A program made the translations under genes and the position numbers. Shown in pieces: positions 2,681-64,000 of a stretch of DNA of 64,000 nt (its first letter is position 1; each line of letters starts with the position of its first letter). Source of the DNA: an uncultured bacterium (lineage in GTDB: Bacteria > Auribacterota > Erginobacteria > Erginobacterales > Erginobacteraceae); assembly GCA_963822585.1 (NCBI GenBank), contig CAWGIE010000010.1, positions 155,578 through 219,577 on the forward strand, in the 5' to 3' direction. A model generated the notes under the pieces. That model worked only from the letters and a program-made list of their open reading frames with translations, made no database searches and had not been told where the DNA came from.

Positions 2681-2689
2681 TGCATGTGT

Positions 2690-2978: not shown

Positions 2979-3208
2979 TAGTAGTCGGCATGACCGCCGG
3001 CATGAAAGTACCTGAGCCCGGAGTTCTTCTTTTCAATCCACCCGGAATTGGTTGCGTGAATTGAGCCATAATGAAATTCACCACGGTCATTTTGCTCAAA
3101 ACCAGGGTCATCACGCGCCCGGGTTTGTCTTGACATGCCGGGATCTTTTTGCTGAAATGTAAGAAAAGAACTTCGGTATAACTTATCGTTAGTCTTAAAG
3201 ATATTGAT

Positions 3209-4036: not shown

Positions 4037-4046
4037 GGGATCGCTA

Positions 4047-5740: not shown

Positions 5741-5797
5741 TGAACACGCTGTGTGTTTACTGAAGGTCATTTGCGTCATTGGCGCAGAAGAAAGAGA

Positions 5798-6724
5798 ATG
5801 AACACCAAAGCACTCACACGACTCACGGCTCGCCAGTTTGAAAATCTCGTTTACGATCTTCTCGTGGCACTGGGACTACGCAATGCTGCATGGCGCACAC
5901 CAGGACGAGACGCCGGTCGCGATATAGAGGGCGAGTACTTTACTGCTGACATATCGGGAAGTTATGTGAAGCAAAAATGGTATATTGAATGCAAGAAGTA
6001 CAAGTCCTCGGTATCGTGGCCAACCGTACGTGAGAAGTTGAGCTATGCCGAGGCTCAAGCGGCCGATTGCCTTTTTGTCGTGACGACTAGCACCATATCC
6101 CCTCAGTGTCTGGATCAGATCGAGCAATGGAATCATGCTCATTCTAGACCGCAAATCCGGCACTGGGGGAGACACGAGTTATCAAATGCCCTTTTTCGCT
6201 TCCCTCACTTGCTCATCAAGTACCGCCTTCGTGCGCCTCTTCCCGAGATCCGCGCGCGTGCATTTCTAGACTTATCCAAAATCGCACTCAAATATATCTA
6301 CTCTGCCCACTCCGCCAGCGTGTTTGATCGAAGCCCGATGGACTATCTTGAAACCGCATCGATACTCTCCGACTTGATAACGCAGAAACTCAGTCAACTC
6401 GAGAGTACTGGCGTCCTATCAAACGAGCATTTTCATGTCGATCAAGACTCTTTTGAATGGATAAAAGTCATAGGGCAAGTGCCACTCTATTTTGACACGT
6501 ACACTATTCGCGCAATCATCGCTGTCGCTCGACAGATTGCGATGGCGAGACTTGTCACGCTCTGCGTCGTTGGCGATCATAGGCTTGAATTGTCGGGTGA
6601 TCCCTCTTTCCGCACACCTACGGAATCCCAAGAGGCTGATCTCCGCGCGATTGCCTCATGGGGAGACCTTGAATTGGAGTTCGATAACGCCACAATCGCA
6701 ATTGTCGGAAGGAACCACATATGA
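5798..6724 (+). CDS. Mrr_cat-type restriction endonuclease domain protein with unknown C-terminal domain
   Basis: FENLVYDLLVALGL...GRDAGRDIEG...WYIECKKYKSSV...VREKL...LFVVTTSTIS matches the Mrr N-terminal catalytic domain pattern (D..E.K). The ATG at 5798 is preferred over the GTG at 5753. Confidence 0.65.
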   Translation: MNTKALTRLTARQFENLVYDLLVALGLRNAAWRTPGRDAGRDIEGEYFTADISGSYVKQKWYIECKKYKSSVSWPTVREKLSYAEAQAADCLFVVTTSTISPQCLDQIEQWNHAHSRPQIRHWGRHELSNALFRFPHLLIKYRLRAPLPEIRARAFLDLSKIALKYIYSAHSASVFDRSPMDYLETASILSDLITQKLSQLESTGVLSNEHFHVDQDSFEWIKVIGQVPLYFDTYTIRAIIAVARQIAMARLVTLCVVGDHRLELSGDPSFRTPTESQEADLRAIASWGDLELEFDNATIAIVGRNHI

Positions 6725-7461
6725 ATGACAGTGTCGCATCAGGCGCACTCCATTTGCTGTCTAACTTCACGCATCAAGTCATAAATCCATTAAATGGGGT
6801 GATCGGCACACTTGATAATATCATTGACGGCACTATCAGTGGCGAAAGGGTCGATCAGAGGCTTCGAAGCTCTCGTGGGCAGTTGGAGTGTGCCGTGTCG
6901 TTGGTTCGAAACCTTGTCTTTTTCGCAGAGTATTCGGCAGACTACTCGTACGCGAAGCAGGCAAAGACAGACAAGATTTGCATCATCCCGCAATTAGTAA
7001 TTGAATCGGCGATGTTCTTCCAGGAATCTGGTGTCGCTCTCGGAGTTAAGATTGAATTACAGAATCGCCAAATCCAGAATGCTGTTCATGGGAATCCGGA
7101 TCTTCTTCGTCAAGTGTTCATGAATATCTTCGATAATGGAATCAAGTATGGAATTAATCCCTCAGTGATTGAGGTGAAGAATTGGATTCAAAAGGAGTCG
7201 CGCTCACTGATTATTACTGTCGCTGGCAGGAGTGTAGGTTTCGAGAAGACAGAAGATATTTTTGCCCTTGGCATTAGAGGGAGAGCGGCGCAAGAGAGGA
7301 CATCATCAGGCAGCGGTCTTGGCCTTAGTATTTGTCGACTCATAATCGAAAAAGTGTTCAATGGGAGGATTGCTGCCCAGCACAGTCCCAAGACAAAGAT
7401 GACAACATTCGAGATCCGAATACCAAATGCATTCGAACATAGGAGTGATCGCCTTGAATAA
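6721..7461 (+). CDS. sensor-less cytoplasmic histidine kinase (DHp + HATPase_c only)
   Basis: The H-box HQVINPLNGVIG lies at residues 18-29, so there is no room for a sensor or TM domain. N-box FDNGIKYG and G2-box GSGLGLSI are present. The start overlaps the upstream stop (ATGA at 6721). Confidence 0.8.
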   Translation: MNDSVASGALHLLSNFTHQVINPLNGVIGTLDNIIDGTISGERVDQRLRSSRGQLECAVSLVRNLVFFAEYSADYSYAKQAKTDKICIIPQLVIESAMFFQESGVALGVKIELQNRQIQNAVHGNPDLLRQVFMNIFDNGIKYGINPSVIEVKNWIQKESRSLIITVAGRSVGFEKTEDIFALGIRGRAAQERTSSGSGLGLSICRLIIEKVFNGRIAAQHSPKTKMTTFEIRIPNAFEHRSDRLE

Positions 7462-7918
7462 CAAGAACGACACTGTGATGATTTTGGACGACGAACCTCA
7501 GCATCAACAATGGCTTGTGGAGTTTATCGAGAGCAAGAATTATCGCGTCGAATCGGCCATGAACCTTGAGCAGGCTGAGGCATTGCTGCGACAGAATAAA
7601 TATCGGTTTGTTGTCATCGATTTGAATGTTCCGGCCCAAGGCTCATCTGCACGGGTTCTGATGAATGAGGGGGCTCTTGCACGTAGATATCCAGGTATAG
7701 TGGCGGCCCAACTGGCGCGAAACCTAGGATATAGAAATCGCCAGGTGGTTCTGTACTCAGTGCATAACTCTGATGAAGTGCGAAAGGAAGCCGCGAGGAT
7801 CGGCGTGCGTTATATCCTAAAGGGGCGCCCGAAGGAGTTTAAGGAAGAAGTTGAGTCAATCCTTCAACGTGATCCAAGTTCTTCAAGAGTGCCAACAAGC
7901 TCTTCCACTCGTATATGA
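7427..7918 (+). CDS. stand-alone response-regulator receiver (REC) domain protein
   Basis: VMILDDEP...RFVVIDLNVP...VVLYS has the acidic pocket and conserved Asp pattern of REC. There is no output domain. The start could be the internal ATG at 7478. Confidence 0.7.
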   Translation: MHSNIGVIALNNKNDTVMILDDEPQHQQWLVEFIESKNYRVESAMNLEQAEALLRQNKYRFVVIDLNVPAQGSSARVLMNEGALARRYPGIVAAQLARNLGYRNRQVVLYSVHNSDEVRKEAARIGVRYILKGRPKEFKEEVESILQRDPSSSRVPTSSSTRI

Positions 7919-8002
7919 ACCCCGCCACGGGGTTCGCGCCAATGAAGCGCAACGTTGAACGTCTGAATGTTGCCGGGAACCGGGGATAAAGGTTGAGCAC
8001 TT

Positions 8003-10870
8003 ATGAGTAGGACATTCGACCAAGGCAAAGATGAAGTTGCAAAGCTGTGCCAATTCTTCGCCACTAACCAGCATTCCTTTCGCGCCCCGAATGTCAAGGA
8101 AGCCCATGTTCGCCAATCGCTCATCAACCCTTTTTTCGAAGCGCTTGGTTGGGACGTGCGCAATAACTCCATGGCCGCACCCCAATATCGCGAAGTCATT
8201 CCCGAAGACAGTCTGGATGTGGAAGGTCACCAGAAGGCGCCCGACTACACCTTCCGCGTCGGCACCTTGCCGAAGTTCTACGTCGAAGCCAAGAAGTGCG
8301 GCGTCAATATCAGCACCGATCCTGGCTCGGCCTATCAACTTCGCCGCTACGGTTTCAGCGCCAAACTTCCTCTATCCATCCTGACCGACTTCGAGGAATT
8401 CAGCGTGTACGATTGTTCCTCTCGCCCTCGCCCCGGCGATAAGGCCAGCCATGCCCGTATCCAGTATTTAGACTTCACCGAGTATCCTGACCGTTGGCGG
8501 GAGATTTGGGACGTGTTCTCACGCGAGGCGGTCTGGTCTGGGGCATTCGACAAGTATGCTGCCTCCAAGCGCAAGCGCGGCACCTCCGAGGTTGACAGCG
8601 AGTTTCTGAAGGATATCGAAGGCTGGCGCGATGTATTGGCACGAAACCTCGCTCTCCGCAACAGCGATTTGTCGGTAGACGATCTCAACGCTGCCGTTCA
8701 ACGGATCATTGACCGGATCGTCTTCCTGCGGATGGCCGAAGACCGCAGATTGGAATCTTATGGGCGACTACTTAGGCTCTGTGAGCGACCACATATCTAC
8801 GACCGTTTTATGAGCGAATTGTGTCGTAAGGCTGACGAAAAATATAACTCCGGCCTGTTCCACTTCCAGAAAGAACCCGGCATTTCTGATGCGCCTGACA
8901 CACTCACACCTCGTCTGACTGTAGACGACAAGGTTCTCAAACTCATTCTTCAAAGCCTTTACTTCGAATACGGTTGCCCATACCACTTTGGTGTCCTACC
9001 CGTAGAAATCCTCGGTACAGTGTACGAACGTTTCCTCGGCAAAGTCATCCGCCTGACCGCCGGGCATAAAGCCAAAGTCGAGGAAAAACCCGAAGTGCGC
9101 AAGGCCGGCGGCGTGTACTATACCCCTGCCTATATAGTGAATTATATTGTCCAGAATACCGTCGGAAAACAGATTGAAGGCAAAAGCCCGGCCAAGCTCT
9201 CCGGCGGCAAAACCAAGCCCCCCTTCCGCGTGCTCGATATGGCCTGTGGAAGTGGCTCCTTTCTCATCGGAGCTTATCAATTCCTGCTGGAACATTGCCT
9301 GAAGTGGTATCTGCACAACCCCACTAAAAAATACGCCAAGGCCACCTATAGGGACGCTAAAGGTGAGCTTCATCTTACTATCGAGGAACGCAAGCGAATT
9401 CTCATCACCCACATCTACGGCGTTGATATTGACCGGCAGGCCGTTGAAACCACCAAGCTCTCGCTACTGTTGAAGGCTCTCGAAGGTGAAAACGACGCCA
9501 CGCTTTCTCAACAGATGTTACTATTCCACGAACGCGCATTACCAAATCTATCCCACAATATCAAATGCGGAAACTCCCTTATCGCCTCTGACTTCTCAAT
9601 GGATCCCGAAGACTTAGTGCGTGTCCATGCCTTCGATTGGCCTGCACAATTCCCCGATGCCATAAAAGCTGGTGGATTCGATACCGTTATCGGTAATCCA
9701 CCGTATTTATATTCCGCGGGACAAGACAACATTGGTTATTTTCAATCAAACTTTCAATTCAGCGAATATCAAACCGACTTTTACGTATATTTCATCGAGA
9801 AGGCGATTAAACTCACTAAGCCCCAAGGACTGTTGTCTTTTATTGTTTCAGATTCCTGGCTCAAGGCAGAGAACTTTTCAAAACTCAGAAAACATCTCTT
9901 GACGGAACACAGGCTTAATCGACTTGCCATTTTTCAATTCCCGCCATTTGCGGGGGCAACTATCGAGAATTCGATTCTTGTGGTCTCCAAAAACGGGAAG
10001 CCTATGGATATTCCCATTGACTCTTTTTCAGAACCAGAAGTGTTTCGGCAAATCAATATTGTCTCCCCTTCTGTCGCGGCTAACCGTGGATTAGTTGATC
10101 CACGATTCTCAAACAAAGCCGAGAAACTCATTCAAAAACTTGAGCTACACAGCTCGCACCTCGAATCTATTACAGAGATTAACCGTGGAATTCACGCATA
10201 TCGCACAGATGGCTACGGCAAATCTAAGTTTGGCCCGGGACCTCAAACTAAACGCGACAAGGAAGAACAGTCCTACCACGCAAAAAGCCCGCTGAATAAA
10301 ACCTATTTGCCGGAATTAAAAGGTAAAAATGTTTTCCGATTTGAGAGTGTTCCGAGTGGTGACTTTGTTTCCTACGGAAATTGGCTGGCTGAATCCCGCC
10401 AGCCAAAATATTTTCTAAATCCAAAGATTGCCCTCCGCAAAGTTCTTGGGAAAAAACTTCATGGAACCTTCCTGCCGAACCCCGTCATATTAGACCAATC
10501 ACTTTATGTAATGATTTCAACCAGCAATGACGAAGATCATTTAAAGTTTCTTCTTGGCATCCTGCTTTCGAGTGTCGGAGCTTGGTATTTAAGAACCAAG
10601 TTTGCCATCTATGACACATTATACCCTTGGTATACTCGCAAACAGCTGGCCTCGTTCCCGATTAAAGGCGAAAACCCTTGCTTAGTGGAGTTGGTGGAGA
10701 AGATGTTGGTGCTGATGCCGAAGCTGCGCGAGGCTACATCGGAATCCGAAAAGGCCGCATTGCAGAATGCCATAACGACGACTGATGCGGAGATCGACCG
10801 TCTGGTGTATGAACTGTACGGCCTGACGGAGGAGGAAATCAAAATTGTTGAAGGGGAATGCTGCCGATGA
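8003..10870 (+). CDS. Type IIG restriction-modification enzyme (MmeI/Eco57I-like fused endonuclease and N6-adenine methyltransferase with TRD)
   Basis: N-terminal PD-ExK (APDYTFRV...FYVEAKK). SAM motif I VLDMACGSGSFL. Motif IV IGNPPYLY. A roughly 350-aa C-terminal region is the candidate target-recognition domain. Total length 955 aa. Confidence 0.75.
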   Translation: MSRTFDQGKDEVAKLCQFFATNQHSFRAPNVKEAHVRQSLINPFFEALGWDVRNNSMAAPQYREVIPEDSLDVEGHQKAPDYTFRVGTLPKFYVEAKKCGVNISTDPGSAYQLRRYGFSAKLPLSILTDFEEFSVYDCSSRPRPGDKASHARIQYLDFTEYPDRWREIWDVFSREAVWSGAFDKYAASKRKRGTSEVDSEFLKDIEGWRDVLARNLALRNSDLSVDDLNAAVQRIIDRIVFLRMAEDRRLESYGRLLRLCERPHIYDRFMSELCRKADEKYNSGLFHFQKEPGISDAPDTLTPRLTVDDKVLKLILQSLYFEYGCPYHFGVLPVEILGTVYERFLGKVIRLTAGHKAKVEEKPEVRKAGGVYYTPAYIVNYIVQNTVGKQIEGKSPAKLSGGKTKPPFRVLDMACGSGSFLIGAYQFLLEHCLKWYLHNPTKKYAKATYRDAKGELHLTIEERKRILITHIYGVDIDRQAVETTKLSLLLKALEGENDATLSQQMLLFHERALPNLSHNIKCGNSLIASDFSMDPEDLVRVHAFDWPAQFPDAIKAGGFDTVIGNPPYLYSAGQDNIGYFQSNFQFSEYQTDFYVYFIEKAIKLTKPQGLLSFIVSDSWLKAENFSKLRKHLLTEHRLNRLAIFQFPPFAGATIENSILVVSKNGKPMDIPIDSFSEPEVFRQINIVSPSVAANRGLVDPRFSNKAEKLIQKLELHSSHLESITEINRGIHAYRTDGYGKSKFGPGPQTKRDKEEQSYHAKSPLNKTYLPELKGKNVFRFESVPSGDFVSYGNWLAESRQPKYFLNPKIALRKVLGKKLHGTFLPNPVILDQSLYVMISTSNDEDHLKFLLGILLSSVGAWYLRTKFAIYDTLYPWYTRKQLASFPIKGENPCLVELVEKMLVLMPKLREATSESEKAALQNAITTTDAEIDRLVYELYGLTEEEIKIVEGECCR

Positions 10871-10947
10871 CGACGCCCAACAATCAGGTGAAGGCAACGC
10901 GGACGACCACGCGCCTCATCCATCACGTTAGCCAAGAGGATTGAAAT
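10871..10947. repeat. short attC-like site (GCCCAACAATCAGG ... CACGTTAGCC)
   Basis: GCCCAAC fits the inverse core RYYYAAC. AACAATC resembles class-1 59-be starts. Ends in a CGTTAGCC core-like motif 9 nt before the next ATG. Confidence 0.4.
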
Positions 10948-12222
10948 ATGAGGACAGATCAGGTCTTTGGCATATCACCCGAGGTACGTGAGTATTCTTA
11001 TGTTGATCGCGGCAATCTCGACGCAGCTTTGGCCACAATGCTTAAGAGGACTACTCACATTGCTATCCGCGGGCCATCAAAGTCAGGTAAATCTTGGCTT
11101 CGGCAGAAAGTGCTGGGAAATCCGATAACGGTGCAGTGTAGACTCAAGAAACCATTCACCGACATATATGTCGATGCGCTTTCACAGCTAAACATAAACA
11201 TCCAGGTCAAAGAATCACGGCAAGGCGTCTTCAAGGCAAACCTTTCCGCAATGGGCGAAGCAGGTTCAGCACTACTGGCCAAAGTTGGCATCACGGCATC
11301 TCTCGGTCGTGATGTCGCAAACCTGACCGAGCAGAGCATAGTCGGTCATGATATCAACGATCTAAAATATATTGCGGATATCATCAAATCGTCCGATCGT
11401 CGCCTTGTCATTGAGGATTTTCACTACATGTCTACGTCTGATCGACGCAGTTTTGCGTTTGATTTGAAAGCGCTCTGGGATTACGGAGTCTTCGTCGTCA
11501 TCATTGGAGTCTGGTCTGAAACAAATCTATTACTCCATCTGAATCCTGATCTTACCGGCAGAGTGACAGAATTACCGATTGACTGGGTACACGATGACTT
11601 AGTGCGGATACTTACAAAAGGAGGGGATGCGCTTCGCATCGAGTTCGCTCCAAGAATTCAATCTCTGCTCGTATCCTTGTCCTATTCCAACGCAGGATTG
11701 CTTCAGCAACTTACACTCCTGACCCTTGATGAAGCGGGAGTCTATGAGAAGGGCTTTCTTAAGAAGACAATAGATAATATCGCTCACGTAGATGGCGCGA
11801 GCATGGTCTACGCGGAGCAACTAAATCCGGTATATCAACAATTTGCAAAGCGCGTCGCAGCTGGCGTCAGGACGCGAAAAAACGCTACGGGAATTTATGC
11901 CCATGCAATGGCTGTTATATTGGATGCATCGGACGAGGAGCTTGTTAAGGGACTCCATGCCCGTTCAATTTTTGAAAGAGCCGTGAAGCGCCAAGAGCGT
12001 ATTCAGTATAGCAACTTGAAGGCAATTCTCGATCAACTTGAAGGGTTGCAAGTGGATGATGACGGTCGCGGGCTGATTCTTGGATATAGTCCAGCGACCG
12101 AGGAGATTACCATCGTTGATCGCCAATTGCTTCTTTATCGCCGATTTGCCACTGTAAAATGGCCATGGGAAGATTTGATCCGCGAGGCTGATGCATTTGG
12201 TGGGCAAATAGAAGCAGGCTAA
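10948..12222 (+). CDS. P-loop NTPase (AAA-like ATPase)
   Basis: Walker A IRGPSKSGKSWL. Walker B RLVIEDFHYM (hhhhDE-type). 424 aa. Confidence 0.7.
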   Translation: MRTDQVFGISPEVREYSYVDRGNLDAALATMLKRTTHIAIRGPSKSGKSWLRQKVLGNPITVQCRLKKPFTDIYVDALSQLNINIQVKESRQGVFKANLSAMGEAGSALLAKVGITASLGRDVANLTEQSIVGHDINDLKYIADIIKSSDRRLVIEDFHYMSTSDRRSFAFDLKALWDYGVFVVIIGVWSETNLLLHLNPDLTGRVTELPIDWVHDDLVRILTKGGDALRIEFAPRIQSLLVSLSYSNAGLLQQLTLLTLDEAGVYEKGFLKKTIDNIAHVDGASMVYAEQLNPVYQQFAKRVAAGVRTRKNATGIYAHAMAVILDASDEELVKGLHARSIFERAVKRQERIQYSNLKAILDQLEGLQVDDDGRGLILGYSPATEEITIVDRQLLLYRRFATVKWPWEDLIREADAFGGQIEAG

Positions 12223-12287
12223 TCAGCGGGTGGAATACTACGGCCTGAAATGGACCAAGGCTTACCCGTGCTGTTCATCAAATAGCA

Positions 12288-13325
12288 ATGAAACTTATCG
12301 GCCACACAATCTTGGATATCTACGGCGTAGAGCGCATACCTCTCGATGGCGAATATACAACAGATCGCCTCGCCGAGGTTATGATCGAGAACTGGGTGCC
12401 CTTTATAGAATGCCATAGGAAATGCTGCCGCGCCGATTCCTGCAAATTCGCCCCAAAGAAGAAAGGAGAGGATATTCGCTGTGAGGTTGCGGTAAAGGTA
12501 ATACGGAATTTCGTGCATATCACTTCTTCGATCCTCGAAGGGTTGAACAGCATACAAATACAGAAATACTTGGACGGAGCATTTTTTTTGTCGAGGTTCA
12601 TTTTCGAAGCTGAGGGCACGGTGGGGATGTGTATGGACGAGGACTGCGTCAGATACTGGGATGAAATGGCCCCAATACTTTTTGGACGACTGACGCGGCT
12701 GCGAGGCAATCTTAACGACCTTGCCACCAACTGGAAAGAGATACCCGAGCTTCGCGCAACTCAGCACGTGCTACTGGTCGAGGGAGAGTCAGAGCGCGCT
12801 TTCCTCGACGAGTTGAGAAAGTCTCACAGCAGTTGGTTCTTGGACCTCAATATTGACGTGTACGGGGGAAAGGGGAACCGCCGTCCTGGCAGGATCCAGA
12901 TGCTATTGAAACGCTATATTTGCCAAGGGTATACCGTTTATGTAGTGGGCGATGCGGATGGAGCGAATACAGATATCTTCGAGCGACTTGTGGATAGCGG
13001 GTTGGTCAAGAGAGAGAGCACGTTCATTTTCACTCACGATTTCGAGACATCGCTTCCGATTGGGTTACTTCTGCATGTTCTCAAAAACCTTCACTTGATT
13101 GGCGATACTGCCTATTGCCGAGAGCTTCTGGATCATCGAAGTGGCTCCGTGGTACAGCAACTCAAGGATGGTTCTTCACTCGATATAGGTCCGCACAAGG
13201 TTGCCGTGGCCCAGGCAGTCGCACGCGTCCTCAACCATCCCGATGTCATATGGTGGCAGAACGATGGGTTCATGAAAGAGAGTGAACTAGGGCGGTTCCT
13301 CCGCTTCATCCAAGGGATCAGATAG
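12288..13325 (+). CDS. TOPRIM-type (OLD/DUF4435-like) nuclease domain protein with N-terminal Cys-rich segment
   Basis: HVLLVEGESERAFL (Toprim conserved Glu) and VYVVGDADGANTD (DxD) about 75 aa downstream. CHRKCCRADSCKF is a possible Zn site. Partner of the upstream ATPase. Confidence 0.5.
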   Translation: MKLIGHTILDIYGVERIPLDGEYTTDRLAEVMIENWVPFIECHRKCCRADSCKFAPKKKGEDIRCEVAVKVIRNFVHITSSILEGLNSIQIQKYLDGAFFLSRFIFEAEGTVGMCMDEDCVRYWDEMAPILFGRLTRLRGNLNDLATNWKEIPELRATQHVLLVEGESERAFLDELRKSHSSWFLDLNIDVYGGKGNRRPGRIQMLLKRYICQGYTVYVVGDADGANTDIFERLVDSGLVKRESTFIFTHDFETSLPIGLLLHVLKNLHLIGDTAYCRELLDHRSGSVVQQLKDGSSLDIGPHKVAVAQAVARVLNHPDVIWWQNDGFMKESELGRFLRFIQGIR

Positions 13326-13521
13326 ATCCTGGCGAACAATCGACTACAACGTTACACCGGCTTCGCTATATTGCATCGGCGAAGTTGTGGTGGAGTGTTC
13401 ATGAAAAAGCATTCAAGATCCTTGATCTGCAATAAGTGCAGGGGAAAACTGAAGTGGGAAAGATTCAAAAAAAACGGCGAACGCTTCAGAACTGTCTTGT
13501 GGTAATCTTTATAGCGACATT

Positions 13522-13773
13522 GTGGAGGAAATTTACATGGTACTCATCGAAGCAAAAGTAATGGACGCAACCCATCTGGAGTTGACAAAGCCCATCACCG
13601 CAAAACGGGGCAAGAAGGTGTTCGTCGTGGTTGCCGAATCCGCGGAGCAGGACGCGGAACGGCGGGAGTGGCTTGAGGGGTCGGCTGCGACTCTGTGCTC
13701 AGCCTACGGCGATTCCGAGCCCGATTACACCCCTGACATGGTCAGAGAAAGCAATCAGGACTATGAGACATGA
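13522..13773 (+). CDS. DUF104-like putative antitoxin
   Basis: MVLIEAKVMDATHLELTKPI...GKKVFVVVAE follows the DUF104 pattern (M.I.A.YENGVLKPLE...G..V.V.I). RBS GGAGG upstream. Confidence 0.4.
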   Translation: MEEIYMVLIEAKVMDATHLELTKPITAKRGKKVFVVVAESAEQDAERREWLEGSAATLCSAYGDSEPDYTPDMVRESNQDYET

Positions 13774-13826
13774 AGGAAGCCGACATCATTCTCACGCCTC
13801 TGCCGCAGGCTGACGTTCAACAATAA
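13770..13826 (+). pseudogene. MazF/PemK-family toxin remnant, truncated after 18 codons
   Basis: ATGA overlap with the antitoxin stop. MKEADIILTPLPQADVQQ* resembles the PemK/MazF N-terminus (GDIVLVPFPFTD), then stops. The next gene follows with its own RBS. Confidence 0.4.
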
Positions 13827-13838
13827 AGGAGGCAAAAA

Positions 13839-14585
13839 ATGAATGCATATCGAATGACCGTGTTGATTGCCCTGCTGATCGCGGGAATAGCTCACACAAC
13901 ATGGGCGGATGATTGCTCCAAGATATCAGTCTCTGGTTCAGCCACCAAACAACTCAAACCGGATGTCGCGTACATCACGCTCTACGTGAACGGAGACGGC
14001 GTGCTGATGTCAGATGCGGCCAAGAAAGCAGACGACAATGTTGAGACAGTTCTCAAGGCCGTCAAGGAAGGACGAACTAACATCATCGACATTGCCGTAA
14101 CAACAATTGATGTCGGAGAAAAAAGTTCTCGCACCTGGAGCAGCGACCAACAGAGCACTCCCCCAAGGCCGCAGGTATCCAAGCGATTGATGATCGCTAT
14201 CCCGCCGGATTCAACCTTGGCGTATGAAATTATTGATGCCGCAATCAGAGCGGGAGCGATTCTGGCTCGCGATAGTATGACGCACTACTCGGGCGAAGTG
14301 CGTGGAACCGTGGTCTATGGCGTCCGGGATGGAGCAGCAATCGAGGAAGAATTAAATAAGGACGCGTTTGCGGATGCCCGCAAGGAAGCAGAAAAAACGG
14401 CGCAATACGCGGGGAAGAGTGTTGGGCCGTTGTGTTCTATCGGGTGCCAATCGACGACATTATGGTCCCAGAGGATGGTGTTTGGCGAAAAGGCGACGGA
14501 GTATCCGACGAAGTACCTGAGCACAGACTCGAAACAGATCGAGATCAAGGCCACGGTATTGGCAACTTTTGAGCTTCAAGATTAA
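13839..14585 (+). CDS. SIMPL/DUF541 (BP26/YggE-like) periplasmic protein
   Basis: Signal peptide MNAYRMTVLIALLIAGIAHTTWA. SIMPL-like GSATKQLKPDVAYITLYV and late KATV..TFEL. RBS AAGGAGG. Confidence 0.6.
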   Translation: MNAYRMTVLIALLIAGIAHTTWADDCSKISVSGSATKQLKPDVAYITLYVNGDGVLMSDAAKKADDNVETVLKAVKEGRTNIIDIAVTTIDVGEKSSRTWSSDQQSTPPRPQVSKRLMIAIPPDSTLAYEIIDAAIRAGAILARDSMTHYSGEVRGTVVYGVRDGAAIEEELNKDAFADARKEAEKTAQYAGKSVGPLCSIGCQSTTLWSQRMVFGEKATEYPTKYLSTDSKQIEIKATVLATFELQD

Positions 14586-14800
14586 GAACCGTCGAACCAT
14601 TGGCTTCAGTTTGTCCGGATGCCCCGACGGCATTCTCGATCCTAATGCGCTCACGGCCGGTCCCCCTTCGGCGCCGGAGCGCTCACGTCGGAATCCAGTG
14701 CCATCCCCCTTAAATCCCGCGGCTTTTACCCCGAGATAGCGAAGCTATTTTTCGGGATTACGCTGTGGGTGAATCAGTTCAGCGATCATCCATGCCGTAA
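14586..14800. repeat. composite intergenic repeat: attC-like part plus copy of the 2881-2978 element
   Basis: 14712-14800 is nearly identical to 2890-2975. The upstream part is GC-rich and palindromic. Confidence 0.5.
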
Positions 14801-14933
14801 TTAAAGAATCGTTGGCAAAGAAGATATTAAAGAATTTGAATTCTGGATGAATGACCGGACAACCGGTTGCAGCGGACAAGGCTCCGCGTCGCCGTTGAAT
14901 AGGAATGTTGAACAAACATAAAAGGAGGGAAAC

Positions 14934-15374
14934 ATGAAACTGCCGGAGTATATCACTGCCGAGGAAGTAAAAAGAGTCTGCGACGAAATCGGTTTGAGGG
15001 ATTGGTCCACGATCACGGAGCCGACCGTTTCAGAAGAAGAAGCATCCGCGATTCTTAAGATCGTGAATACCAGGGGGATGGAAATCCCCCGGGAGGCTTT
15101 CCGCAAGGGATTGGAAGTTGAGCTGGAGCATGGAACACGGTTTGAGGACGCGAATGTCACGAACAACCACCCGATCCTGACCGGCCAGATCGTTATCGCG
15201 CACCTCAAAGAGACCATGGATTATTATGAAAGAATCGATGTCGCTGAAATGGAAGGCGATTTATTGCACGCTGTCCTGTCTCGCAACCTCGAAAAGATAG
15301 AATCAAAGTATAAAAAACTCATCGCGGCCCGCACTGCCCTGAATCGATCGGTTGCCGACCAATTGCAGAAATGA
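14934..15374 (+). CDS. hypothetical protein (146 aa)
   Basis: Strong RBS AAAAGGAGGG. Last + strand gene before the GC jump. No family recognised. Confidence 0.6.
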   Translation: MKLPEYITAEEVKRVCDEIGLRDWSTITEPTVSEEEASAILKIVNTRGMEIPREAFRKGLEVELEHGTRFEDANVTNNHPILTGQIVIAHLKETMDYYERIDVAEMEGDLLHAVLSRNLEKIESKYKKLIAARTALNRSVADQLQK

Positions 15375-58095: not shown

Positions 58096-59286
58096 ATGAA
58101 GCCGAAGCATTATATATTTACGTCGGAATCGGTAACCGAAGGGCATCCCGACAAGGTCTGCGATCAGATCTCGGACACTGTTCTGGACAAGGTCATGAAG
58201 GACGATCCCCAGGGCCGGGTGGCCTGCGAGACTTTCATCACCGCCGGTCTCGCCATCGTGGGGGGAGAGATCACCACTACCACCTATATCGATGTTCCCG
58301 ACCTGGTCCGGGAAGTCGTCAAGAGTATCGGCTATACCGACCCCCGATACGGGTTCGACTACAAGAGTTGCGCCATCCTCAACGCCATCGGCCGCCAGTC
58401 GCCCGACATTTCCCAGGGGGTCACCGAGGGGGAAGGGGAGCACAAGGAACAGGGCGCCGGCGACCAGGGTCTGATGGTCGGCTACGCCTGCCGGGAGACC
58501 CCGGAGTTGATGCCGCTGCCGATCATGATGGCGCACCGTCTCTGCCATCAGCTGGCGAAGGTCAGGAAGGAAAAGGTTCTCCCCTGGCTCGGTCCCGACG
58601 GAAAGTCCCAGGCAACGGTTGAATATCGGGACTGCAAGGTGGTTTCCATCCCCCGGGTGGTTATCGCCGCCCAGCACACCAGTGAAGTGGTCGATAAGTC
58701 CGGGAAGTTCATGACCGAAGAAGCGAAGGAAGCCATCCGGGACGAAGTCATCAAGCCCGTCCTGAAGGATTTTTACCGGGAAGGGGAAACGATCTGGATC
58801 GTGAACGGGACGGGAAAATTCGAGGTCGGGGGACCCCAGTCGGACACGGGCATGACCGGACGCAAGATCATCGTCGACACCTACGGGGGTGAAGCCCCCC
58901 ACGGCGGCGGCGCTTTCTCCGGCAAGGACCCTTCCAAGGTCGACCGGAGCGCCTCTTACATGTGCCGGTATATCGCCAAGAACATCGTCGCCGCCGGGCT
59001 GGCCGACCGCTGTGAAATTCAGCTCGCCTACGCGATCGGGGTGGCGGAGCCGGTCTCAGTTTACGTGAACGCCCACGGGACTAGCGCTCTCACCGATGAC
59101 GAACTGGTCGCCCTGGTCCGGGACGTCTTCGCCCTCAAACCCCGGGGGATCATCGAGATGCTCGATCTCCGCCGCCCGATCTATCGGCGGACCGCCGCTT
59201 ACGGACACTTCGGGCGGGAGGAGGAAGGTTTTACCTGGGAGAAAAAGGACAAGGTCGACGAGCTGAAAAAGGCCGCCAAAAAGTAA
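58096..59286 (+). CDS. metK: S-adenosylmethionine synthetase
   Basis: [29 protein letters not shown]. Confidence 0.9.
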
Positions 59287-59536
59287 CACGGACATTCCTG
59301 TCTGTGTGGGGCGTCCTTCAGGCCTAAAGTAGCACAGACATTCCTGTCTGTGCGGGGCGTCCGCCAGGCCGAAAGTAGCACAGACATTCCAGTCTGTGGC
59401 GCGTGCCCCAGCCAAGAGTAGCACAGACATTCCTGTCTGTGCGGGGCGTCCGCTAGGCCGAAAGTAGCACAGACATTCCTGTCTGTGCGGGGCGTCCTTC
59501 AGGCCTAAAGTAGCACAGACATTCCTGTCTGTGTGA
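59284..59536. repeat. tandem array, 5.5 copies of a 46-bp unit (TAGCACAGACATTCCTGTCTGTGCGGGGCGTCCGCCAGGCCGAAAG)
   Basis: Each unit contains the hairpin CACAGAC-ATTCCT-GTCTGTG. The variants are ordered A-B-C-B'-A. Confidence 0.8.
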
Positions 59537-59578
59537 AAACGCCCCTCCCCGCCATCAGCGGGGAGGGGCGTTTTCCTT
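59537..59578. terminator. strong bidirectional rho-independent terminator
   Basis: AAAACGCCCCTCCCCGC-CATCA-GCGGGGAGGGGCGTTTTCC between convergent metK and the intI remnant. Confidence 0.7.
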
Positions 59579-59591
59579 CCGCAAATCCCGT

Positions 59592-59945
59592 TCAGCCGGT
59601 GGCGTTTCCGGGATCGGGGCTCCGGTCCGGCAGGACGTCCAGCGGGCTGCGGGCCCGGGTCTTCAACTCGCGGGCGACGTGGGTGTAGATCATCGTCGTC
59701 TCCACGCTCTTATGACCTAATAGGTCCTGTGTCTCCCGGATGCCGGTTCGGCCTCCGATCTCGGCCAGGAAGAGGTCAAGGGTCTGCTCGAAAGTGTAGC
59801 CGGGGTGCGCCCGCGCGAAGTGAAGAAACTCCTTCACCCATCGGACCAGGTAGGGCTGATGCTTGGGCGGCGCTAATTTTTTCTCGCGCAAAAACTTGGC
59901 ATAATTATTTAGCACCGTCTGGAATTGTTTTCCTGCCTGGTCCAT
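59592..59945 (-). pseudogene. intI: integron integrase remnant with large internal deletion (117 aa instead of about 320-340)
   Basis: N-terminus [32 protein letters not shown] aligns with IntI1 YVHWVRAFIRFHGVRHP...VEAFLSWLA. Its C-terminus [22 protein letters not shown]...RSPLDVLPD aligns with IntI1 [22 protein letters not shown]...RSPLDALPP. The R/K/HxxR catalytic middle is absent. Confidence 0.7.
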
Positions 59946-60639
59946 AACTAATCCCCAGCATTATCCTCAACTTTATATATATTAAGGGAATATAGATGTT
60001 AGATTAATAAATATGATATTTCTGATGAAGTATATTTCCTTTATAAAGAGGGGAGAGAAAAAATCCCGGTTTCTCATTGATAAAATATATCTCGGGGGGT
60101 AAAATACTCCCAGTTTTCCGATGACTGTATGGATGCCCTAGGGGGGCTCTGTGCATCAGTGTTGCCAGAGGGTATACGCCAGGTTTAGCCACCGCTTCTT
60201 TTCGGATGGAGGCGGTGGCTTTTTCTTTTAATTTTGCCTAACAAATATGTAATCAATAGACTTCCTGAAAAAGTACGAATTTTTGCCAAGGATTTGCTTG
60301 TCTCGATTGTCAAATATATCAAAGAAGAGAATCGCCATTATAAATTGATTGGGGCATTGATTTGAAAGCAGGAGTTGTTCCCGGATCCCCAAGGAGCTAT
60401 CAAAATATTGATCTCCCGTATTATGTATAATAAATATACATAACCAGGATAATTAAGGGTAATAGGTAATTCCGCTACCTTTATCCTGATCAGGAACAAA
60501 GGAATACCCGATCTTTTCCGAGGAAATATTGTTGCGAAGGCATCAAAAGGGAGATTGGGTATAATAACAAGATATGCGGACCGCTCGCTAAGGCTCGCTT
60601 TCGCCTGACGGCGAATCCGCTTATCGGAGAGCTGAGCAG

Positions 60640-60775
60640 CAAGCTGCTCGATCAGCTGGAAAGGCTGCGCGCTTCGCGCTCCGCCTATCCAGCCGCTCGA
60701 GCAGAAATCGGCCTAATCGCCGAGCAAGCTCGGCATTAGGTCAATTCTGCTGCTCAGCTTCTCCGTTCTGGAGGT
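60640..60775. repeat. attC-like imperfect inverted repeat (first recombination site of array 2)
   Basis: CTATCCAGCCGCTCGAGCAGAAATCGGCCTAATCGCCGAGC / GCTCGGCATTAGGTCAATTCTGCTGCTCAGC arms. Shares its left end with sites at 62835 and 63730. Confidence 0.5.
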
Positions 60776-60779
60776 AAAA

Positions 60780-61293
60780 ATGAAAATAATTACTAAAACT
60801 AAAGCAGCATTACTAATAATCCCTGCGGCACTACTCTTCACCTTCATCAGCTTTTCCTCCCATGCTGATGACCTAAAGGAAGTGCCAAGAACACAGCTTA
60901 TAAAGCGGGGAGATTTATTATTCAAGGTAGATTCGGAAACGCCCTTCACGGGAAAATCGGTTGGCTTTTGGCCAAACGGGCAAAAGATGTTCGAAGATGA
61001 GTTTATTAACGGCATGCCCCATGGGAAATGGATCGGTTGGCGTGAGGATGGGCGGTTATTCAAAAGAGGAAGAATATATAAAAGGCAAACTGCATGGAAA
61101 AACGGTTTTCTGGCACAAGAATGGAAAAAAAGATTTCGAAGGCACTTATTGTAACGGCATTAAATGCGGTATATGGCTATCCTGGTGGGAGAACGGCGCG
61201 AAAAAGTCTGAGGTACAATACACAGAAGGGAAAATTATCAGCCAAAAATATTGGGATGAACAAGGAAAACCGATCAATTTTCTAGATAAATAA
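60780..61293 (+). pseudogene. MORN-repeat (YwqK-like) secreted protein, frameshifted
   Basis: ORFs 60780..61154 and 60961..61293 are in different frames but both carry MORN-like G.w..w.enG units (GKWIGWREDG / GKTVFWHKNGKK / GIWLSWWENG). The frame switch lies near 61045-61070. Confidence 0.5.
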
Positions 61294-61350
61294 TATTCAT
61301 TTTTCTCTTACTTGAAAATATATGCAAAATCGATAATTGAATTAATCTCC

Positions 61351-61420
61351 AGAACCAGTCGCTACAGCAGACCAGAGCCCGCTCTGCGGGCTCTGGCTGC
61401 TGAGCTCGGCGTTAAGCGAG
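61351..61420. repeat. attC-like site (CCAGTCGCTACAGCAGACCAGAGCCCGC / GCGGGCTCTGGCTGCTG ... GGCGTTAAGCG)
   Basis: Near-perfect 17-bp arms. GTTAAGC fits GTTRRRY. Ends 4 nt before the next ATG. Confidence 0.55.
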
Positions 61421-61424
61421 TGAT

Positions 61425-61808
61425 ATGCAACCATCATCATCAACAGGAAGAAAAGCACGCATGGCGTTGTTGCCTCTCTCGTGGTTAGTCGCGTTTGCCA
61501 CAGCCGCGGGTATTCTGTTAGTTGTAGCTATGATTCGTGGAGTGGCCATCAGACAACTATTACAAACAGACTCTCCTTGGCTTCTAGCCCTAATCTTGCC
61601 CTCGTTAGCCTTTGGGAAGGTTTTGGGACTCATTTTAATCAATCTCATCGCTTATATAACACCACTGCGCCGGGTTTTTGAGAAGGAATGCAGAGACACC
61701 GGCCGTCAAGATTTCTCCAAGGCCATCTTTGGCCTCATGCGGTGGGCTCTCATACTTTTTTTGGTGACTGTGGTCGGAGCGGTTGCATTTCTTTCATTCA
61801 CCCAATGA
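61425..61808 (+). CDS. hypothetical small membrane protein (cassette ORF)
   Basis: 3 TM helices. No family recognised. Confidence 0.5.
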   Translation: MQPSSSTGRKARMALLPLSWLVAFATAAGILLVVAMIRGVAIRQLLQTDSPWLLALILPSLAFGKVLGLILINLIAYITPLRRVFEKECRDTGRQDFSKAIFGLMRWALILFLVTVVGAVAFLSFTQ

Positions 61809-61814
61809 GAACAT

Positions 61815-61887
61815 CGCCTAACAAACCGCTCCACCCGACTTTTGACCGCCATGCGGCGGCCAAAAGCGGGTGAGCTCTACGTTATAT
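61815..61887. repeat. attC-like site (CGCCTAACAAACCGCTCCACCCGAC...GACCGCCATGCGGCGGCC...TACGTTATAT)
   Basis: GCCTAAC is exactly RYYYAAC. The overall layout parallels class-1 59-be sites. Confidence 0.55.
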
Positions 61888-61992
61888 GAAAAATTATCCG
61901 ATTGCTTTAATCGGCTTGTTCCTTGTTACTTCCGCGAACTCTGAATCTGAACTGACTCCCGAACCACCCCCCTTGTCATAGGCACGGATAAT

Positions 61993-62517
61993 ATGCTCTC
62001 CTGGATACTGCCTGATGAGAACTCCAGGGAATACCATACCCCCGAATCTACCATTGAGGAGTTTAACCGACTGGTCGGGGAATGTATTACCACGGAAGGT
62101 AAAATCTGGGAGGGCGCAGAAGATTTAAAGGTCGGCCTTATAGAATGGTTTATCCCAAGAATACTGGCGGAGCATTATAAATTGCGGGGTCGGGATGTGG
62201 TTACCCTGATCGAACAATTCGGACCACCTAAAAGAATCTTGCGGGTACGAGAAGATATCAATCTGGAAAGCCACGAATGGTTGATGAACGATGTCCCCTT
62301 GAGTTTCGGTTGGGTGTTGACGGTCGATGGCGACGATATATGGTTCGAGAAAAGAGCCCCTTTTGAGTGCTATGAATACGATGATTTCTTTATTTGGGTA
62401 GCAGGGAAGGACTCTGATTCAAAAAAAGCTGATAAAGTTTTAGCCATAAGTCCTCGATCCTCCCGATATGATCAATATATCTATAATCTAAATATATTCG
62501 AACAAGAAGATGACTAA
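61993..62517 (+). CDS. hypothetical protein (cassette ORF, 174 aa)
   Basis: No motif recognised. Confidence 0.5.
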   Translation: MLSWILPDENSREYHTPESTIEEFNRLVGECITTEGKIWEGAEDLKVGLIEWFIPRILAEHYKLRGRDVVTLIEQFGPPKRILRVREDINLESHEWLMNDVPLSFGWVLTVDGDDIWFEKRAPFECYEYDDFFIWVAGKDSDSKKADKVLAISPRSSRYDQYIYNLNIFEQEDD

Positions 62518-62590
62518 CATATAACCAACCGCTCCACTCGACCTTGTCCGCTTCGCGGCCCCGGCGAGTGAGCTTTTCGTAGGCTCAAAA
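62518..62590. repeat. attC-like site (CATATAACCAACCGCTCCACTCGACC...CCGCTTCGCGGCCCCGGCG...)
   Basis: The left end is homologous to 61822 and 1676. The internal CCGCTTCGCGG palindrome resembles aadA-type 59-be. Confidence 0.5.
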
Positions 62591-62602
62591 AAAAGAAATC
62601 AA

Positions 62603-62818
62603 ATGATCGAACCTGAAGTAGCCGCAAGGATAGTTGATTCATTATTCAAATCATTATTAATTCCGATCGTCCTCTTCATATTCCTCCTAAAATGGCGTAG
62701 AGATAAGAAGAAGGGACGAGTCAGAAAAACTCTACCTCCAGGATGGGGACGGTTCATTAAAAGATCGGCATGGATAATATTTTGGATTATTTTACTTTGG
62801 ATTACTTCGCTTAGATAA
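62603..62818 (+). CDS. hypothetical small membrane protein (71 aa, cassette ORF)
   Basis: Two TM helices, Lys/Arg-rich loop. Confidence 0.4.
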   Translation: MIEPEVAARIVDSLFKSLLIPIVLFIFLLKWRRDKKKGRVRKTLPPGWGRFIKRSAWIIFWIILLWITSLR

Positions 62819-62965
62819 CCCTTGAACAACAATGAACAAGCCTATCCAGCCGCTCAAGCAGACCGGAAGGGCTAGTGCAACTATCAAACGTATTTATTTC
62901 GCCGGAGGTTTTCGGGGAGCAAACTTTCTCAGTTGGCCCCTTCCGGCAGCTTAGCTTTCCGATTA
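62819..62965. repeat. attC-like site (AACAACAATGAAC...CCAGCCGCTCAAGCAGACCGGAAGGGC / GCCCCTTCCGGCAGCTTAGC)
   Basis: About 85% identical to 63728-63848. Confidence 0.55.
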
Positions 62966-62978
62966 GATATAAATAATT

Positions 62979-63308
62979 ATGAATAAAAATGAAATATCGA
63001 AATCATTTGAAACGGATTTTACAAATCCTGGATCAATAAAATCGGGAGAATATTTGCAGGAAAAGATTTTATCCCGTGCGCGAAATATTGTTCAAAAAAA
63101 TCGTCCGAATTTAATAGAATTATTAAAAGAATGGTTGGCCCTTAGATCGGAACCAAAAACTATGTTAGCTGTGAGATTAGCAAAAGAACTATCATTAATC
63201 GAACTACTTCCAGAAATTGAGAAACTTAAAAATGATATTCAAACTGGAAAATGTTTTTTTCCATTTTACATAAATATAATTAACGATAGTTTAGCTTCGC
63301 TAAGATAG
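62979..63308 (+). CDS. hypothetical protein (cassette ORF, 109 aa)
   Basis: AT-rich. No motif recognised. Confidence 0.45.
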   Translation: MNKNEISKSFETDFTNPGSIKSGEYLQEKILSRARNIVQKNRPNLIELLKEWLALRSEPKTMLAVRLAKELSLIELLPEIEKLKNDIQTGKCFFPFYINIINDSLASLR

Positions 63309-63329
63309 ACGATCTTAATATAGATTTAA

Positions 63330-63425
63330 CCATCTAACAATTCATTGCAGCGGACTTGCGGATAAAGCGCCGCAATGCTCGTTACACTCGCACCCCTTCG
63401 GGGCGCTGAATTCTAACGTTCGCCA
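63330..63425. repeat. attC site, class-1-like (TCTAACAATTCATTGCAGCGGAC...GCGCCGCAATGCTCGTTACAC)
   Basis: The first 23 nt match the aadA-type 59-be start GTCTAACAATTCGTTCAAGCCGAC at 19/23. Ends with a CGTTACAC core-like motif. Confidence 0.6.
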
Positions 63426-63428
63426 CTA

Positions 63429-63773
63429 ATGAAAATAAGTAAAAAGACATCTAAAATCTCTTTGATTATTTACATAGTTTTATTATTGCTTTCATGTTTT
63501 CTGGCTTGCGCCCCTGGTGGACGCGTTTTTTGGTATTGCATAATGACCATCTTTGCGATTCCCCCACTTTTTGCTGGACCACGCTTATATAGAATTCTTG
63601 GAGCGGTTGCGCTCTTAGCCGGAATTATGTTGATTATCTTTGATTACCGTGCTGGTAAAAGTTTTAGCGATGATATCGAGAAAGTCCCGAAACAATATCA
63701 AGATATCAGCTCGACAAAAGATTTGGCAAACCAGTCGCTCAAGCTGACCGGAAGGGCTGGTGCAACTGTCTAA
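63429..63773 (+). CDS. hypothetical membrane protein (cassette ORF)
   Basis: Three hydrophobic helices. The 3' end runs into the next attC-like repeat, so the true stop is uncertain. Confidence 0.45.
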   Translation: MKISKKTSKISLIIYIVLLLLSCFLACAPGGRVFWYCIMTIFAIPPLFAGPRLYRILGAVALLAGIMLIIFDYRAGKSFSDDIEKVPKQYQDISSTKDLANQSLKLTGRAGATV

Positions 63774-63848
63774 CATTTTCAACTTCGCCGGAGTTTTTCG
63801 AGGTAGCATAGTTTTTTAGTCGGCCCCTTCCGGCCGCTTAGATAGTAT
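63728..63848. repeat. attC-like site (CCAGTCGCTCAAGCTGACCGGAAGGGC / GCCCCTTCCGGCCGCTTAGATAG)
   Basis: Homologous to 62835-62965. Confidence 0.55.
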
Positions 63849-63918
63849 GAAAAAGTTGTGAACCTTCTTTGACACAACGGTATTGTCACTGACAACCGTC
63901 AAAGAAAGGAGGTCCACA

Positions 63919-64000
63919 ATGTACTACGTCGGAATCGACCATCACAAAAAGACCAATGCCGTCACCGTGGTGGATAAGGAGGGGACAATCCTGAAACGAG
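63919..64000 (+). mobile_element. IS110-family transposase, N-terminus only (cut by window end)
   Basis: RBS AAAGGAGG. MYYVGIDHHKKTNAVTVVDKEGTIL fits the IS110-family start M..VGID..K....V.V.D..G, including the first Asp of DEDD. Upstream inverted repeat CTTTGACACAACGG...CCGTCAAAG. Confidence 0.45.

Follow-up and report, generated by a model that had tools for sequence, protein, structure and literature searches.

We analyzed a stretch of 64,000 nucleotides (nt) from an uncultured bacterium (contig CAWGIE010000010.1, positions 155,578 to 219,577 of the forward strand; referred to below as the window), the last part of which carries what appears to be a degenerate integron: a remnant of the integron integrase gene intI, the platform upstream of it, an array of small gene cassettes with attC recombination sites, and the beginning of an insertion sequence (IS). 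The G+C content falls from 0.55-0.60 to 0.40-0.46 beyond position 60000, in line with the fall to about 40-45% noted in an earlier reading of this DNA (the original prediction), and the six plus-strand open reading frames (ORFs) listed there, starting at 60780, 61425, 61993, 62603, 62979 and 63429, are all present.

The integrase gene remnant and its relatives

The remnant is a minus-strand ORF of 117 amino acids (aa) at 59592..59945, recognized from its translation, from Pfam and NCBIfam models and by alignment to relatives. Aligned with intact relatives of 427-434 aa, the ORF corresponds in a single frame to residues 1 to ~69 and ~385 to 425, and a tblastn search with it matched residues 1-73 and 387-425, again in a single frame. 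The product joins residues 1-66 of an IntI of ~427 aa in frame to about its last 45 residues, with the junction between GGR and TDIRE, and approximately 316 residues (about three quarters of the gene length) are gone. The missing part takes in the final stretch of the first SAM-like repeat, all of the canonical N-domain, the IntI patch, box I, the lysine and box II, and with them four of the six catalytic residues; only the last His (in LLGH) and the Tyr (in IYTHV) of the R-K-H-R-H-Y set are kept, as judged from the alignment to intact relatives. PF00589 matches the remnant with 22.6 bits, below its gathering score of 27.1, and over positions 147-170 of 172 only. The integron integrase model TIGR02249, the best NCBIfam match, gives 41.9 bits (cut-off 265) over positions 277-315 of 315 only, the region that defines IntI (positions 1-276) being absent. 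The best match among solved structures is VchIntIA (2a3v), to which the C-terminal part aligns at chain residues 267-317 and the N-terminal part weakly at residues 10-70. Because the matches are confined to the C-termini of the models and catalytic boxes I and II are gone, we regard the gene as a dead integrase: its ancestor was an IntI, the present product is not, and it cannot cleave DNA or act as a recombinase. No second intI copy was detected by tblastn in the 64-kb window. The original prediction had described an intI with recognizable N- and C-terminal motifs and without its catalytic middle as the result of an in-frame internal deletion; the ORF, the motifs and the deletion are borne out, the two profiles matching at the extreme C-terminus only, although the N-terminal signature proves to be part of a clade-specific extension of ~110 aa and not of the canonical IntI N-domain.

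This extension became apparent from the relatives. A word-indexed protein search returned 339 of them, of which the best 120 were all short; an exhaustive protein search with a longer fragment found full-length members of 410-460 aa, and a scan of species-representative genomes yielded 34 related intI loci, mostly in Planctomycetota. The gene is intact at only three of the 34 (L008, L014 and L027; 427-434 aa). All three exceed the TIGR02249 cut-off, scoring 401-425 bits over residues 111-426, and a more distant intact relative (P0158) matches the same model with 352 bits and aligns end-to-end with VchIntIA 2a3v (E value 1.4e-64), including the ALxRKYP and WxYxFPS patch, together indicating that the family of the remnant is genuine IntI. 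Ahead of the complete TIGR02249 region, the clade carries the ~110-aa N-terminal extension, in which a Pfam scan found no domain. Profile-profile comparison with hhalign (probability 80%, E 1.3e-5) relates it to the SAM-like core-binding domain, indicating that the extension is a diverged duplicate of that domain and that members of the clade have two tandem SAM-like N-terminal domains; 66 of the about 90 residues of the extra domain are kept in the remnant.

A syntenic relative of the locus also has a deleted intI. The window metK is 90% identical to the metK of a metagenome-assembled genome labeled 'PVC group bacterium' (contig L006; PVC, Planctomycetes-Verrucomicrobia-Chlamydiae), and the next matches are from Candidatus Euphemobacter and Auribacterota. 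L006 is collinear with the window across ptsI, metK and the intI remnant, with 83-88% of nt identical (83-85% in metK and ptsI), and its intI carries another in-frame deletion, of about 137 residues. Compared with L006, the window has lost nt 199-750 of the ORF, which is 552 nt or exactly 184 codons, and the end points of this deletion as seen in L006 (GGACGG|GTC and AGAGGC|ACC) have at most a few bases in common. When the two remnants are compared over the retained codons, the ratio of non-synonymous to synonymous substitution rates (dN/dS) comes to 0.107, with a dS of 0.56; the ratio for metK is similar, 0.087. On the simplest reading, intI would have been functional for most of the divergence between the window and L006, and would then have been deleted recently and independently in both lineages. 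A search for orthologous sites by way of metK gave empty sites at L040-L043, L045 and L046, with convergent ahcY directly after metK at L040, L041 and L045, and an unrelated neighbor at L044. Since the more distant relatives have metK followed by convergent ahcY, the integron appears to have been acquired next to metK in the ancestor that the window shares with L006, at a position between metK and, as judged by synteny, ahcY.

Decay of this kind is common in the clade. About one third of intI genes have been reported as pseudogenes (PMC2426708), and several of the genomes scanned here carry two to four intI remnants. Judged by tblastn end points, 10 of the roughly 27 independent events (truncations or deletions) lose homology at codons 64-74; by inspection, 13 of about 27 break points cluster just after ...LDLFLAEVGGR (codons ~60-74), and the break in the window is at codon 66. 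The N-terminal remnants at L011, L023 and L033 contain in-frame stops and have dN/dS above 1, the truncated genes of L001 and L009 (142 codons) differ at 6 of 426 nt, too few for a selection test, and pairs of truncated N-terminal fragments with a common truncation gave no general support for function. That the first ~60-70 codons form a unit that survives loss of the rest, whether through a recombination hot spot at codons ~60-71 that repeatedly truncates or internally deletes the gene (perhaps IntI acting on a secondary site in its own gene) or through a selected function at the platform of the N-terminal half-domain, as in the 117-aa fusion, is an unlikely idea; if true, the surviving unit would be a built-in route by which an integron is switched off and its platform kept.

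Some further observations concern these relatives. Beside the nearly identical, orthologous truncated genes of L001 and L009 (6001-6426), the downstream flanks are 95% identical and the upstream platforms 78%, and this uneven conservation could reflect gene conversion among intI copies. At L003, an intI fragment (6001-6219) lies inside an array, with same-strand attC matches on both sides (3766 and 9101), and at L019 and L039 an attC-like sequence, recognized by eye, follows the break on the intI strand; the pattern at the three loci hints at events between attC and secondary sites within intI.

The cassette array, the platform and the insertion sequence

The array contains seven attC sites, all on the plus strand between 60683 and 63842, and one inverted mini-attC. 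At each site an RYYYAAC-like inverse core leads to a GTTRRRY-like core just 5' of the next start codon; the sites are imperfect palindromes of the form R''(RYYYAAC)-L''...L'-R'(GTTRRRY), with at least two on the same strand within 4 kb. AAC and GTT are found in most of them, the exceptions being ATC in attC0 and attC4, GTA in attC3 and ATT in attC4. The original prediction had placed an inverted repeat after each ORF, abutting the next start codon, and the repeats do end 8-14 nt before the next ATG (its example at 61411 reads GTTAAGC at 61411-61417, with the ATG at 61425); the array and its attC sites are real, but there are seven sites and an inverted one where it had counted six cassettes. 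In a direct-repeat analysis the 5' halves of the seven sites group together (R''-L'' motif families D1 and D2), and the 5' motif CMARYCGCTCNAS has five zero-mismatch occurrences in the window, all on the plus strand (60689-63743); with one mismatch allowed there are 18 matches in the whole window versus 4.35 expected.

Three lines of evidence identify these repeats more specifically. First, folded as bottom-strand DNA, five of the seven sites form hairpins with z scores of -2.2 to -5.9, the R''/L'' arm carrying one or two bulges of a single base; the published scheme of attC is a bottom-strand hairpin in which some bases are extrahelical and the central spacer is unpaired (PMC4889954, Fig. 2). 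Second, the R' of each site agrees with the reverse complement of the R'' of the next at 22 of 24 variable positions, a score that 2 of 720 permutations equal; such complementarity across each cassette is predicted when circular cassettes are inserted at G|TT. Third, we built an attC covariance model (R1) from three short window sites, chosen because variable loops kept MAFFT from aligning all of the attC sites. These three have a common consensus fold with five compensatory pairs. In the window the model recovers attC0, attC5 and the inverted mini-attC, and in related intI loci it gives 19 matches, of which 17 lie on the strand that runs divergently from intI. Taken together, these results indicate that the repeats are genuine attC sites of a cassette array.

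Seven cassettes can be counted in total, one without an ORF, one frameshifted and one with a cut last attC. Cassette 0 (about 60572-60765) has no ORF; it holds the inverted mini-attC (60619..60665, minus strand; covariance model 16.6 bits, E 0.003; inverted repeat I1), which stands head-to-head with the attC0 that ends the cassette (60683..60771, R'' GCCTATC and R' GTTCTGG; identified from repeats, a fold z of -3.1 and a covariance model E of 0.005). Cassette 1 (60780..61293) encodes a secreted MORN-repeat protein in two overlapping frames, 60780-61154 and 60961-61293, both of which match PF07661 (MORN_2), one also weakly matching NF033566; the gene is probably frameshifted near 61050-61070. 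It is followed by attC1 (61349..61417; fold z -5.4), whose R'' CCAGAAC complements the attC0 R' exactly and whose own R' is GTTAAGC. The ORF of cassette 2 (61425..61808) encodes a hydrophobic protein of 127 aa and is followed by attC2 (61816..61887, R'' GCCTAAC and R' GTTATAT; fold z -5.9), in the bottom-strand fold of which the R boxes are paired and two single-base bulges (T and G) lie on the R''/L'' arm. Cassette 3 has an ORF of 174 aa (61993..62517), preceded by a mini-ORF of 31 aa at 61887-61982, and ends in attC3 (62519..62585, from its cores and fold), in which R'' ATATAAC complements the attC2 R' exactly and R' is GTAGGCT. Cassette 4 encodes a hydrophobic and basic protein of 71 aa (62603..62818) and ends in attC4 (62840..62968), a 129-nt site of the long type (repeat families D3 and D4), with R'' GCCTATC and R' (G)ATTAGAT, that is a paralogue of attC6. 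Cassette 5 (ORF of 109 aa, 62979..63308) ends in attC5 (63332..63424, R'' ATCTAAC and R' GTTCGCC; fold z -2.4, covariance model E 0.03). The ORF of cassette 6 (114 aa, a membrane protein, 63429..63773) runs into attC6 (63725..63842), which has R'' GGCAAAC, was delimited by global alignment and the repeats D3 (86%) and D4 (83%), and is missing its R' end. Except for the inverted mini-attC, all of these cassette ORFs and sites are on the plus strand, and apart from MORN_2 the cassette ORFs matched no family in Pfam, NCBIfam or PADLOC. The boundaries of cassette 4 (62579-62585 and 62961-62968) are one base off G|TT, the left one reading G|TAGGC and the right one GA|TTAGAT; on circularization the ends rejoin to a perfect GATAGGC, and the inverse core is ATC, not AAC. 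This ATC inverse core is common to attC0 and cassette 4, and the attI described below ends in G|AT (60571-60573).

On the array's other side lies the platform, the layout of which was established by aligning the intI-upstream regions of 24 relatives. These have a TTATCC/GGATAAC motif block beside the start codon, an outward promoter (CTTGAC-N17-GGTAnnnT) and a core, CCGGCAAAAGGGGATTTCTGTAGAAnAACAAG|TT, that lies ~185-215 nt from the start codon at most loci and beyond which the sequences diverge; this core is best read as the attI of the extended-IntI clade. In the window, the block beside intI (59946..60020, plus strand, ATTATCC...GTTAGATTAAT) is homologous to that of the relatives by the upstream alignment, and the blastn match to L006 continues into it as far as 60007. 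The candidate cassette promoter (Pc) is a sigma-70-like site, TTGATA-17-TAAAAT, which faces the cassettes at 60077..60105, at the position of the conserved promoter, with a weak profile match (E 2.1). It is followed by an intrinsic-terminator-like hairpin of 13 pairs (8 of them G-C) with a T-run (60187..60230, plus strand), lying between the candidate Pc and the attI. A second, foreign-looking platform block at 60476..60510 (plus strand, TTTATCCTGATCAGGAACAAAGGAATACCCG; nhmmer E 0.07, borderline) resembles the intI-adjacent block of Thermoguttaceae-type relatives. The attI core itself, CATCAAAAGGGAGATTGGGTATAATAACAAG|AT at 60541..60573 (plus strand), is the only significant window match to a profile of the cores of 29 relatives (E 0.0019, and 0.003 in a second search), and the bases after it (ATATGC) fit the attC0 inverse core GCCTATC at five of six positions. 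It lies 626 nt from the intI start, versus about 190 in the relatives, that is, with ~430 nt extra. An AT-rich attI-like region had been proposed beside intI; an attI core is recognizable, but farther out, and the stretch next to intI is not attI.

Since a strong terminator stands between the conserved promoter and attI, transcription of the array from Pc is probably blocked, and the platform as a whole looks rearranged or mosaic. A 22-nt direct repeat (73% identical; 60103-60124 and 60503-60524) flanks an extra segment of ~400 nt between promoter and attI, within which a lone GCCTAAC is found beside the terminator at about 60235; the repeat-bracketed segment may have been left by a rearrangement of the platform. 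Two other attI candidates were set aside: GTTAGAT at 60009 was rejected as the crossover, the family alignment placing this motif in the intI-proximal block, and GGGGGGCTCTGTGCATCAGTGTT at ~60141-60163, considered as a degenerate attI, was unsupported by the profile search. An Rfam search of 59200-64000 (E<=1) gave only chance matches to microRNAs and small RNAs, and the unit at 60077-60230 matched no known RNA family.

At the distal end, the window cuts through the start of a putative IS110/IS1111-type element (63843..64000, plus strand; identified by PF01548, the left end being inferred). The transposase starts at the ATG at 63920 (MYYVGIDHHKK...) after a leader of ~75 nt, and its 27 in-window codons match PF01548 positions 1-23 with an E of 0.008, below the cut-off because the window end truncates the gene. 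Looked up as exact sequences, the remnant, its database twin P0001 and metK led to no recorded contig, and an exact-pattern search of genome contigs for the start of the transposase gave no match, so that the array end and the IS are described as far as 64000. In a global alignment, attC6 follows attC4 closely up to GCTTAG (~63842) and then diverges, ~75 nt 5' of the transposase start. This pattern is compatible with insertion of an IS110-type element into attC6, and not merely after the array; as an alternative, the attC6 end could result from a 12-nt deletion between two TTAG repeats. The array does end in an IS110-like gene, as the original prediction had it, but this gene may interrupt the last attC and not only follow it. 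An inverted repeat at 63866-63909 (CCTTCTTTGAC ... GTCAAAGAAAGG) would hide the AAGGAGG ribosome-binding site of the transposase in a hairpin.

Interpretation of the locus

We conclude, with a probability of roughly 0.85, that the locus is a decayed sedentary chromosomal integron in a genome of the PVC group (Candidatus Auribacterota-like), with an intI deleted in frame and seven fossil cassettes. In this account, seven cassettes would have been inserted by IntI-type recombination between attC and attI, as the R' and R'' complement each other across each cassette, and been left as fossils. The intI, of the extended ~430-aa clade, would have lost in frame the 552 nt counted against L006 (with the second SAM-like domain, boxes I and II and the IntI patch); the platform would have decayed, with attI displaced by ~430 nt, a GAT crossover and a terminator between promoter and attI; and the last attC would have been cut where the IS110/IS1111-type element begins. 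The cassettes would now be immobile in cis and movable only with an IntI supplied in trans. The reading as a degenerate chromosomal integron, or as a cluster of attC sites without an integron integrase (CALIN), already offered in the original prediction, holds up: there are at least two attC sites, the remnant fails both intI models used and tblastn found no other intI in the window, which is what the operational definition in IntegronFinder describes.

Several points weigh against this conclusion. The deletion is known from a metagenome contig alone and is formally inseparable from an assembly error; the long sites attC4 (z -1.4) and attC6 (z -1.2) fold weakly by energy; the attC model was derived from this window itself, as a substitute for the curated IntegronFinder model; the crossover triplet of attI is the non-canonical GAT and not GTT, the core ending in AACAAG|AT; and the left end of the IS was placed from the attC6 break only. 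Finally, the remnant ORF is open with a dN/dS of 0.107, which is unexpected for an old pseudogene, so that the deletion must be assumed to be recent.

The same open ORF and low dN/dS (near the 0.087 of metK) would be explained if the 117-aa product were a retained mini-protein, made of half of the extra SAM-like domain and a C-terminal tail, that serves as a regulator at the platform or interferes, as a dominant-negative partner, with an IntI encoded elsewhere; tyrosine recombinases donate their C-terminal tail to the neighboring protomer. That the different deletion of the L006 ortholog is also in frame, that the same N- and C-termini are joined at other junctions in several database proteins, and that independent remnants tend to break shortly after codon 60 would all fit such a function. 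However, the low dN/dS is explained equally well if the gene worked until it was recently deleted in each of the two lineages, two in-frame events are expected by chance in about 1 of 9 cases, which is not significant, and the search query was itself biased toward in-frame fusions. The in-frame stops and dN/dS above 1 in the remnants of other lineages (L011, L023 and L033), and the truncation of the domain that is kept, argue further against it, and we consider a retained mini-protein quite improbable.

Somewhat less probable still is that the deletion is an assembly artefact, the contig having skipped about 0.95 kb of a full-length intI. The 220,716-bp contig does come from a metagenome assembly, integron regions are rich in repeats, and several intI copies are possible per related genome. 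The end points have, however, at most a few bases in common in the ortholog, a repeat too short to collapse a de Bruijn graph, so that assembly collapse is unlikely; in addition, the window yielded no second copy, the independent assembly of the sister lineage also has an internally deleted gene at this locus, and genuine truncation is usual for the copies on long contigs, one of which measures 7.5 Mb. That the repeats are other intergenic palindromes (REP-like or terminators) and the small ORFs an ordinary low-GC island can practically be dismissed: two sites fold no better than shuffles and no ORF has a convincing function, but the R'/R'' complementarity across cassettes is specific to integron cassettes, the RYYYAAC/GTTRRRY ends lie on one strand and adjoin an IntI remnant and the attI core of its clade, and a model made from these sites finds sites in arrays beside related intI.

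As a result about one window, the decayed integron is mainly a good annotation, of a fossil integron from a phylum-level lineage (PVC/Candidatus Auribacterota) about which little is known. To our knowledge, the attI is unknown for most non-clinical integrons, and the attI/platform consensus of the clade (CCGGCAAAAGGGGATTTCTGTAGAAnAACAAG|TT, about 190 nt from intI, with a conserved outward promoter upstream) is an aid to surveys. Remnants such as this one, composed of the clade N-terminus and the last 40 residues, would be missed by profile-based pseudogene screens, which would inflate the count of 'integrase-less' CALIN. What is added here is the attI consensus of the clade, an orthologous pair of different in-frame deletions, the clustering of break points and the extent of decay.

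Two other parts of the window deserve mention. Eighteen nt past the stop codon of the intI remnant sits a perfect G+C-rich hairpin with a 17-bp stem (AAAACGCCCCTCCCCGC / GCGGGGAGGGGCGTTTT; 59536..59574, read from the sequence), which looks like a bidirectional terminator between the convergent metK and intI remnant. Next to it, between the metK stop and the remnant (59280-59533), there are 5.6 tandem copies of a unit with a period of 46 nt that contains the palindrome CACAGACA-TTCC-TGTCTGTG; the unit is present as a single copy in the syntenic ortholog L006, indicating that a terminator-like hairpin was amplified locally in the window. At the opposite end, positions 1-15000 carry plus-strand genes with defense-type domains (SLFN_AlbA_2, protein kinase, Mrr_cat and Eco57I-type methylase/endonuclease), with matches to the attC model at several gene ends (516-574, 1670-1726 and 7890-7960), the best of which is 516-574 (E 7.7e-5; R'' CCATAAC, R' GTTGAGC). 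This region is probably the first integron of the original prediction, an array of large defense cassettes.

Comparison with known systems

Frequent decay of intI is already documented (PMC2426708), and the locus adds to a well-known class. Like the degenerate integrons and CALIN described before (PMC4889954, PMC2426708), it has a same-strand cluster of attC sites with cassettes of mostly unknown function, adjoins an inactivated intI, has an IS nearby and is chromosomal, beside housekeeping genes. It differs from them in that its pseudogene is an in-frame deletion that leaves an open ORF of 117 aa, in that the remnant is entirely without the intI_Cterm region, and in that its attI core is recognizable but displaced. 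The published screen, which applies the CALIN criteria and searches for intI pseudogenes with more than 50% profile coverage (PMC4889954), would presumably miss a remnant without the intI_Cterm region and call this locus a plain CALIN.

The integrase family invites comparison with the 'Clade 15' IntI, which exceed other IntI by ~120 aa as the result of a gene fusion and were placed in Deltaproteobacteria (PMC2426708). The intact relatives found here resemble them in length (427-434 aa, with the ~110-aa N-terminal extension), a likeness judged by description and not by phylogeny; by contrast, these relatives are mostly from Planctomycetota and the host is from the PVC group, and the extension is here traced to a diverged duplicate of the SAM-like domain. 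Against the solved structure of VchIntIA (PDB 2a3v), the intact relative P0158 covers the whole chain and the C-terminal part of the remnant fits chain residues 267-317, whereas the window product has no counterpart of chain residues ~12-280.

The element at the end of the array can be set beside the IS1111-attC group (ISPst6, ISKpn4), for which PMC11187229, citing Tetu & Holmes 2008 and Post & Hall 2009, gives one end of the attC site as the target. In the window, a transposase of the DEDD (IS110) type starts ~75 nt past the break in attC6, and the region 5' of the transposase gene is short and non-coding, as passages of the same source describe for IS1111-type elements; the likeness to the group is one of the left junction and 27 codons only, and within those bounds it is consistent with an IS1111-attC element at the last attC site of a fossil array.

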